Assembly (NCBI GenBank): GCA_963807605.1
Contig: CAWECG010000001.1
Coordinates: 32,001 to 96,000 of the forward strand
Direction: 5' to 3'
DNA length: 64,000 nt
Source: Candidatus Bathyarchaeota archaeon
GTDB taxonomy: Archaea; Thermoproteota; Bathyarchaeia; 40CM-2-53-6; RBG-13-38-9
Shown here one piece after another: positions 55,273 through 56,388 of the stretch. Positions within the stretch are counted from its first letter, which is position 1, and every line of letters begins with the position of its first letter. A program made the position numbers and the translations under genes. The notes beneath the pieces are model-generated. The model made no database searches. It had not been told where the DNA came from and saw only the letters and a list, made by a program, of their open reading frames with translations.

Positions 55273-56221
55273 TCAAAGAAGCAAAGCTAGGAGGCTTTTC
55301 GTTGTGTGTAGTCTGTTTTCAGCTTGATCCCAAACCACGGATTGAGGGCCGTCGATAACCTCTCCTGTGACTTCCTCACCTCTTCGACAAGGAAGTGGAT
55401 GCATAAAGATGGCTGCGCTGGATGCTGAAAGCATTAATTCGGAATTGACTTGGTATTCCGGTAGGAAAGATCTCAGTCTCTCCTCTCTCTCAGCCTCCTG
55501 TCCCATGCTCACAAAGACATCCGTGTAGACAATGTCTGCTTCTGCAACTGCGTGCTTAGGGGATGTGGTGATGTCAACACTCGAACCTGTAGTCTCAGCG
55601 TTTTTTTTGGCTGTTCTCACGAATTCGGGGTCAGGCTCGTATATGGCTGGGCAGGCGACTGCTATGTTTATGCCCATCTTTGAACAGCCGATCAAGAGAG
55701 AGTTGCAGACGTTGTTACCATCTCCGACATAGGCTAAAGTGAGGTTTTCAAGGGTGCGTTTCTTCTCCCAGATTGTCATAAGATCTGCGATGGTCTGCAC
55801 AGGATGTTCCTTATCGGACAGACCATTTATTACTGGTACAGCCGAGTATCGGGCCAACTCATCCAGTGTGCTGTGTGAGGTCACTCTGGCAACTATTCCG
55901 TCAACATACCCGCCAAGTGTTCTGGCCGTGTCGGCTACAGTCTCTCCCCGGCCAAGCTGCAAGTCTAGCCAATTCAGATAGAGCGCATGCCCGCCAAGTT
56001 GACGCATAGCCACTTCAAATGAGGCTCTTCTCCGATCACCAAGGTTAGACCTCAGGTGATGTTCGGGTAGAGGGCTTCTGAAAGATCATAGCCAGACTCT
56101 TACTTGGAAGTAGCTTGGACATCCGTCTCCTCTTAAGATTCCTTGCAAACTTCAGGGTTCGCCAAATTTCACTATTCCCGTAGTCCTGCAGTGAGAGGAA
56201 GTCCCTTCCCTTTATCGACAT
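55273..56221 (-). CDS. argF: Ornithine carbamoyltransferase interrupted by a 31-nt BHB-type intron; join(56221..56061, 56029..55273), 305 aa
   Basis: SD AGGTGA plus ATG at 56221 gives MSIKGRDFLSL...MIFQKPSTRT|RASFEVAM; HPVQ, SMG and HPLP motifs downstream. Confidence 0.92.
56030..56060 (-). other. mRNA intron (bulge-helix-bulge/loop type) in argF
   Basis: CCGA AC|A UCACC...GGUGA UCGG AG|A AGAG: perfect 4-bp central helix, two 3-nt bulges and an intron hairpin. Excision restores the frame and the STRTR motif. Confidence 0.87.
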
Positions 56222-56388
56222 ATTTTCACCTGAGAATAGTGGTGAGGTGGCAGTATATAGTCGCTAAGGAAGCGGATCTGTGGTCGCGTTGAATTGGCAT
56301 ACGAAAAAGAAAATGTTGTGATATCCGCCTAGATAAAAAGGGGTATGACTCGCCGTTGCGTTAGTGGATGCTCCCCCAGGTCTCTACA

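Follow-up and report, generated by a model that had tools for sequence, protein, structure and literature searches.

According to reviews, the tRNA splicing endonuclease (EndA) cuts two known archaeal mRNAs, cbf5 and HVO_1309, one of them within the coding sequence, and more cases are expected (PMC10485636, PMC7714728). The cbf5 intron of Desulfurococcales and Sulfolobales is short, at 16-44 nt (Watanabe 2002; Yoshinari 2006; Yokobori 2009, PMC2738675). In HVO_1309 of Haloferax volcanii, a structure of the bulge-helix-bulge type (BHB) in the 5' untranslated region of the mRNA is cut by a homodimeric EndA (Schwarz 2020, PMC7714728; PMC10485636). Among tRNAs, the non-canonical introns of TACK archaea show HBh' geometry and go with an (alpha-beta)2 EndA that has a specific loop (PMC5829648). 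Here we describe a 31-nt insert in argF, the gene for ornithine carbamoyltransferase (OTCase), in a 64,000-nt stretch of a Candidatus Bathyarchaeota archaeon genome (hereafter the window; assembly GCA_963807605.1, contig CAWECG010000001.1, positions 32,001 to 96,000). The insert is very likely a cbf5-type archaeal pre-mRNA intron that is removed by EndA and RtcB and tolerated as a constitutively spliced passenger. A literature search, with subscription papers mostly outside its coverage, turned up neither an argF intron nor any mRNA intron in Bathyarchaeia.

The argF insert shows every testable feature of a cbf5-type pre-mRNA intron. Like its cbf5 counterpart it is short (30-34 nt among relatives), splits an active-site codon, forms a relaxed BHB with cuts placed after the second bulge base, varies in its inner sequence, was gained within a limited clade and resides in a host with a hetero-oligomeric EndA. 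The two differ in that argF encodes a metabolic rather than an RNA-modifying enzyme, belongs to the class Bathyarchaeia and is one of at least six such genes in its genome. Splicing is proven for cbf5, whereas in-vivo cutting and ligation of the argF transcript are inferred from that precedent (PMC2738675). With HVO_1309, argF shares an mRNA BHB and, by prediction, the enzyme that cuts it, but its intron lies in the coding sequence and the endonuclease is not a homodimer. The geometry and the type of EndA are those of the TACK tRNA introns, of which this genome has many, including those of a five-intron tRNA-Tyr; the argF case differs by lying in an mRNA.

The gene starts with an ATG at 56221 on the minus strand, and its parts are as follows, in positions of the window:

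56226..56231, minus strand: Shine-Dalgarno-like AGGTGA, 4 nt upstream of the start codon, read from the sequence
56061..56221, minus strand: argF exon 1, made up of 53 codons and the first 2 nt of the split Thr codon in STRT
56063..56066, minus strand: central helix, 5' (exon) strand CCGA, 4 bp
56060..56062, minus strand: 5' bulge AC/A, predicted EndA cut between 56061 and 56060; ACA in 11 of 11 family members
56030..56060, minus strand: intron of 31 nt, a hairpin with two in-frame stops and a +1 frameshift
56032..56035, minus strand: central helix, 3' (intron) strand UCGG, pairing with CCGA
56029..56031, minus strand: 3' bulge AG/A, which EndA is predicted to cut between 56030 and 56029; AGA in every sequence of the family alignment
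55273..56029, minus strand: argF exon 2, 1 nt plus 251 codons plus stop

The unspliced frame reads FQKPSTRT and ends at a TAA (56047-56045) after 58 aa, with a second in-frame stop, TGA, at 56038-56036. Excision of 56060-56030 yields a 918-nt coding sequence for 305 aa that reads KPSTRTRASFE, the insert having split the last Thr codon (ACA) of the STRT motif. Of the excision offsets tried between -6 and +6, only 0 and +1 restore the frame, with an identical product. Exon 1 matches positions 1-53 of the Pfam profile OTCace_N (E 4.8e-10) and exon 2 matches positions 54-148; since these segments meet across the insert, the exons abut exactly. Exon 2 also covers positions 2-157 of Pfam OTCace and contains the HPVQ, ARV, HPLP and ENR motifs, and the best PDB matches of exon 1 are the OTCases 1PVV and 1A1S. 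By sequence, the joined product is an OTCase, with STRT at 51, HPVQ at 129, HPLP at 264 and both PF02729 and PF00185 above cut-off. The cuts predicted from the BHB coincide with the junction demanded by homology. An earlier sequence-only reading of this locus had called the start at 56221 with its good Shine-Dalgarno sequence, the stop-bearing insert after FQKPSTRT and the excision to a 305-aa OTCase containing STRTRASFE, and each of these calls held. A comparable GGTGAA lies 5' of the argF start in genome G008.

That reading had also drawn a complete BHB. The central helix (CCGA/UCGG, four Watson-Crick pairs), the two bulges and the intron stem, a 10-bp hairpin of UCACC/GGUGA plus GAGGU/ACCUU, stand as drawn; the exon helix CUCU/AGAG is set apart from the central helix. 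Between the two lie the unpaired bases AC (56068-56067), and the first two adjacent positions are mismatched. Given this offset, the motif is a relaxed BHB of the HBh' type. An equal motif arose at the site by chance at a rate of 8e-5 in shuffled sequences and 9.5e-5 in random genomic 31-mers (200,000 trials). Across the genome, BHB shape alone was not enriched (460 occurrences versus 441 and 443 in controls with 2-, 4- or 5-nt bulges); because the shape is this common by chance, the weight rests on its coincidence with the required junction and on conservation. The insert does not fit a group I or group II self-splicing intron, whose catalytic RNA core takes hundreds of nucleotides: it measures 31 nt and had no Rfam match up to E 1.

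Conservation is extensive within the family. An insert of 30, 31, 32, 33 or 34 nt occupies the same base in 11 of 11 same-family genomes in which the junction is assembled, spanning six genera; the inserts begin after CG(A/G)AC and end in CGGAG ahead of AAGA. Each of the three frame classes is represented among their lengths, and stops occur in the 30- and 33-nt versions, which keep the frame. The presence of 1-nt indels in essential genes of this genome, such as those for RNA polymerase subunits, could suggest that the insert is an artefact of assembly or sequencing. That explanation is refuted by ten other independent assemblies and one metagenome contig, which have different inserts, of 30-34 nt, at that base; we regard the probability of an artefact as negligible. 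When metagenome contigs were searched with a loose junction pattern, the matches were mostly due to chance, with at least one true argF (L334) among those listed. Apparent long inserts at three loci (L035, L091, L100) were rejected as pattern errors in intact genes.

Outside the family, argF is uninterrupted at 14 loci of other families in the order and at 66 other archaeal and bacterial loci, as well as at nine further Bathyarchaeia loci whose junctions were read directly. A class-wide search of 250 genomes listed non-family matches that open near or above 290 aa, except for partial matches and one 1-nt indel. Open-frame length can miss introns, as in G006, which shows 312 aa despite its intron, and this survey is therefore indicative only. 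In a tree of exon-2 proteins, the 11 intron-bearing genes form one clade (support 100/98). These comparisons point to a single gain of the argF intron, in this Bathyarchaeia family's ancestor, with no loss seen. Separately, a locus of family f2 (L359; G190:C17, near 37530) has a 1-nt deletion in the argF codon directly after STRT, the same site as the intron of the present family, f1; this deletion is probably an assembly error.

Both exons remain open at constant length across the six genera, with pN/pS (nonsynonymous relative to synonymous change) of 0.09-0.38 in exon 1 and 0.16-0.40 in exon 2, values that indicate purifying selection on both. This bears on the proposal that an old insertion killed argF and that the family lives without the gene. 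Four family genomes lacking an argF-level match (G004, G007, G010, G012) would allow for such a loss. Against it stand the constraint on the two exons, the intact argG and the absence of a second argF in the genome, where the only remaining tblastn match is 28% identical and pyrB-like. The sequence of the insert moreover drifts while its paired structure stays. We consider a pseudogene very improbable; decayed exons beside a second, intact argF, which the sequence-only reading had named as a possible refutation, were not found in this genome.

The pattern of change within the insert supports a conserved structure. In the family alignment 79.5% of cells pair, compared with 70.7% in shuffles (none of 500 as high) and 15-39% in slid controls. 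Two-sided, compensatory change affects 16 cells, and the third stem pair alternates between A-U and G-C. The inner and loop sequence is unconserved. The Arg codon within the central helix is CGN in 11 of 11 intron-bearing genes versus 7 of 22 intronless Bathyarchaeia genes.

Several observations weigh against a cbf5-type intron at this site. The exon helix is offset, as described above; the outer pair of the central helix is an A-G mismatch in the four g3 genomes, and the inner pair is a G-A mismatch in G014. Given the offset and these mismatches, cleavage would depend on relaxed recognition. The 11 sequences are related, so that the covariation figures make them look more independent than they are, and the structure scored on the alignment came from one of the 11.

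Two further explanations dispense with RNA splicing. In one, the ribosome would hop the hairpin in the manner of T4 gene 60, by translational bypassing or frameshifting. A hairpin and in-frame stops 3' of a take-off point would fit such an event. The take-off codon ACA and the landing codon AGA are, however, unmatched; the codon after take-off is a sense codon in 11 of 11 members, and the position of the stop varies, one member having none in the stretch tested. The insert lengths in all three frames also argue against bypassing, as do the conserved features, which are exactly the helix and bulges of a BHB. This explanation appears highly unlikely. In the other, exon 1 and a re-initiated exon 2 would be made as two chains that assemble. 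STRT is indeed retained in the unspliced frame, and a 246-aa frame begins with a GTG at 56013, but the RASFE residues, conserved between insert and GTG in all members, would be lost, and the conserved BHB would be left unexplained. A split gene is about as improbable as a pseudogene.

A cbf5-type intron in argF would need a suitable endonuclease and ligase, and by sequence both are encoded: an alpha and a beta subunit of EndA, in the regions of C4:303386 and C3:661701 of this genome, and the ligase RtcB (E 7.8e-173). EndA alpha has its nearest matches in the crenarchaeal (alpha-beta)2 enzymes 2CV8, 3P1Z and 2ZYZ, and its Lys40 aligns with Lys44 of the Crenarchaea-specific loop of the A. pernix enzyme. 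Tyr124, His132 and Lys163 align with the A. pernix catalytic triad. Enzymes built as (alpha-beta)2 cut relaxed motifs, and the Lys of the specific loop has been tied to such cleavage (PMC5829648). These assignments indicate that the host has a hetero-oligomeric EndA fit for relaxed motifs, together with a ligase. The tRNA genes have the corresponding introns: ARAGORN predicted introns in 25 of 31 tRNAs, although some calls are unreliable. The five-intron tRNA cited in the sequence-only reading is real, a tRNA-Tyr(GUA) that lies outside the window at G000:C2:53336 on the plus strand (G000 being the genome studied); removal of its five BHB introns (23, 24, 47, 22 and 21 nt) gives a 77-nt tRNA accepted by ARAGORN. 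The central proposal of that reading, a BHB pre-mRNA intron in argF removed by the tRNA splicing enzymes, thus gains support from conservation, covariation, selection and the enzymes encoded.

In the proposed mechanism, the four exon-1 bases next to the bulge would pair with the 3' end of the intron while the intron hairpin folds, giving the relaxed BHB. Heterotetrameric EndA would cut after the second base of each 3-nt bulge, and RtcB would join the exons; the rebuilt ACA (Thr) would restore STRT-RASFE and the 305-aa OTCase. Unspliced RNA would yield the 58-aa stub. The most probable view is that the intron is tolerated as a passenger and spliced constitutively, and that it is retained because no deletion but an exact one would preserve the active site. 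Its origin left no trace in our comparisons: the insert has no likeness beyond chance 8-mers to the ARAGORN-called tRNA regions of the genome, and the other five mRNA introns of the genome include no donor.

Those five introns came from a scan of broken core genes, a check that had been suggested for argF and that returned six conserved introns in all. The reference was 1.11 Mb of G030, a relative with an intronless argF, which offered 568 orthologue-like genes. A blind best-excision search found a full BHB only in argF and nadE; many of the other frames were broken by 1-nt indels or single stops, as is typical of assembly error, and had no BHB. A filter on intrinsic coding score passed over argF and was discarded. 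A second scan, which also admitted first exons of small size and introns that the reference has too, found the 31-nt argF intron and the following five, whereas two control geometries gave one gene-boundary artefact and one shifted nadE copy:

G000:C3:1143681-1143699, plus strand: cbf5 intron (L172), 19 nt, in the codon of the catalytic Asp; all 29 readable loci of the Bathyarchaeia have it, at 16-35 nt
G000:C3:875125-875156, plus strand: nadE (NAD synthetase) intron (L173), 32 nt; 30-34 nt in nine family genomes
G000:C1:210688-210718, plus strand: EF-2 intron (L238), 31 nt, just 5' of the GTP-binding loop; 39-nt counterpart in G030
G000:C1:148050-148014, minus strand: aIF5B intron (L237), 37 nt, in the P-loop; 15 of 15 readable family loci (35-40 nt), 45 nt in family f3
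G000:C4:128220-128245, plus strand: rnhB (RNase HII) intron (L236), 26 nt, in the DEAGRG motif; 10 readable family loci plus G018 (family f4), 21-31 nt

The cbf5 intron lies at the same Asp codon as the experimentally known crenarchaeal one. The nadE intron is missing at every other readable locus, and the aIF5B intron is absent from other families read and patchy within the order. All six introns split conserved motifs, a position that homology-based detection favours. It is highly probable that at least six mRNAs of this genome need splicing. At about 1% of testable genes, this number is a lower bound and describes a repertoire rather than wholesale proliferation. The idea that BHB introns had proliferated genome-wide, hidden as pseudogenes, therefore survives in part: six introns are there, but among only some 570 testable orthologues, and many breaks lack a BHB. 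The gene pcm is intact in the genome.

A regulatory role would be an addition to constitutive EndA-RtcB splicing of argF and is compatible with it: regulated splicing could act as a gate on arginine synthesis or, if EndA is limiting, on a group of essential genes jointly. Under this proposal, a multi-gene repertoire (argF, nadE, cbf5, EF-2, aIF5B, rnhB and perhaps more) would have gained its introns stepwise at essential motifs, and translation, NAD synthesis and arginine synthesis would be controlled together by splicing efficiency. Consistent with it, no intron loss occurs among the 11 genomes, all six introns interrupt essential motifs such that unspliced RNA would be null, and the cbf5 intron has been proposed as a negative regulator (PMC2738675). 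The insert nevertheless has no conserved loop sequence and no Rfam match. The arginine control point of the sequence-only reading was not borne out, given that argF lies outside arg clusters, that the Arg content of exon 1 (3-8 of 50 codons) is not conserved and that the other five introns sit in unrelated housekeeping genes. We consider regulation, whether of arginine synthesis or as a shared control, unlikely.

If spliced as proposed, argF would bring a central metabolic enzyme into the set of archaeal mRNAs that EndA cuts. With its six conserved cases, this one genome suggests that pre-mRNA splicing is a routine expression step in this lineage, not a one-gene oddity. The introns differ in age: that of cbf5 is class-wide, those of aIF5B and rnhB are patchy in the order, and those of argF and nadE are seen only in the family. 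They may thus provide a dated series for how protein-spliced introns enter coding genes. Annotation pipelines will call such genes truncated, and reconstructions of Bathyarchaeia may therefore wrongly score arginine or NAD synthesis as broken.

Around argF, a KH-like open reading frame lies on one side and a D-aminoacyl-tRNA deacylase-like one on the other, both named by eye. Two intact genes of the argininosuccinate synthase (argG) family, at G000:C1:150338 and C3:1072032, are distant from it. A promoter scan with bacterial models found no match.

Elsewhere in the genome, core genes including those for RNA polymerase subunits contain 1-nt indels or single stops (C3:948554, C4:305533, C4:390656, C3:910373), likely long-read errors that mimic pseudogenes. 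A 17-nt mini BHB resembling the cbf5 intron, with a GGC GAAA GCC stem, occurs at G000:C3:1056437 (plus strand); its excision fuses two short frames, and no homology support was obtained for it. In two other Bathyarchaeia, the match to cbf5 falls into two parts, separated by about 1.5 kb and both inside a single open frame of about 800-850 aa (G037:C11:292008-294365 and G061:C11:16465-18771), which suggests an intein in Cbf5. Finally, a 60-63-nt hairpin element is repeated in at least three copies (G000:C4:560618, C4:503613 and C1:230895, plus strand) and is probably the end of an insertion sequence or of a miniature inverted-repeat transposable element.
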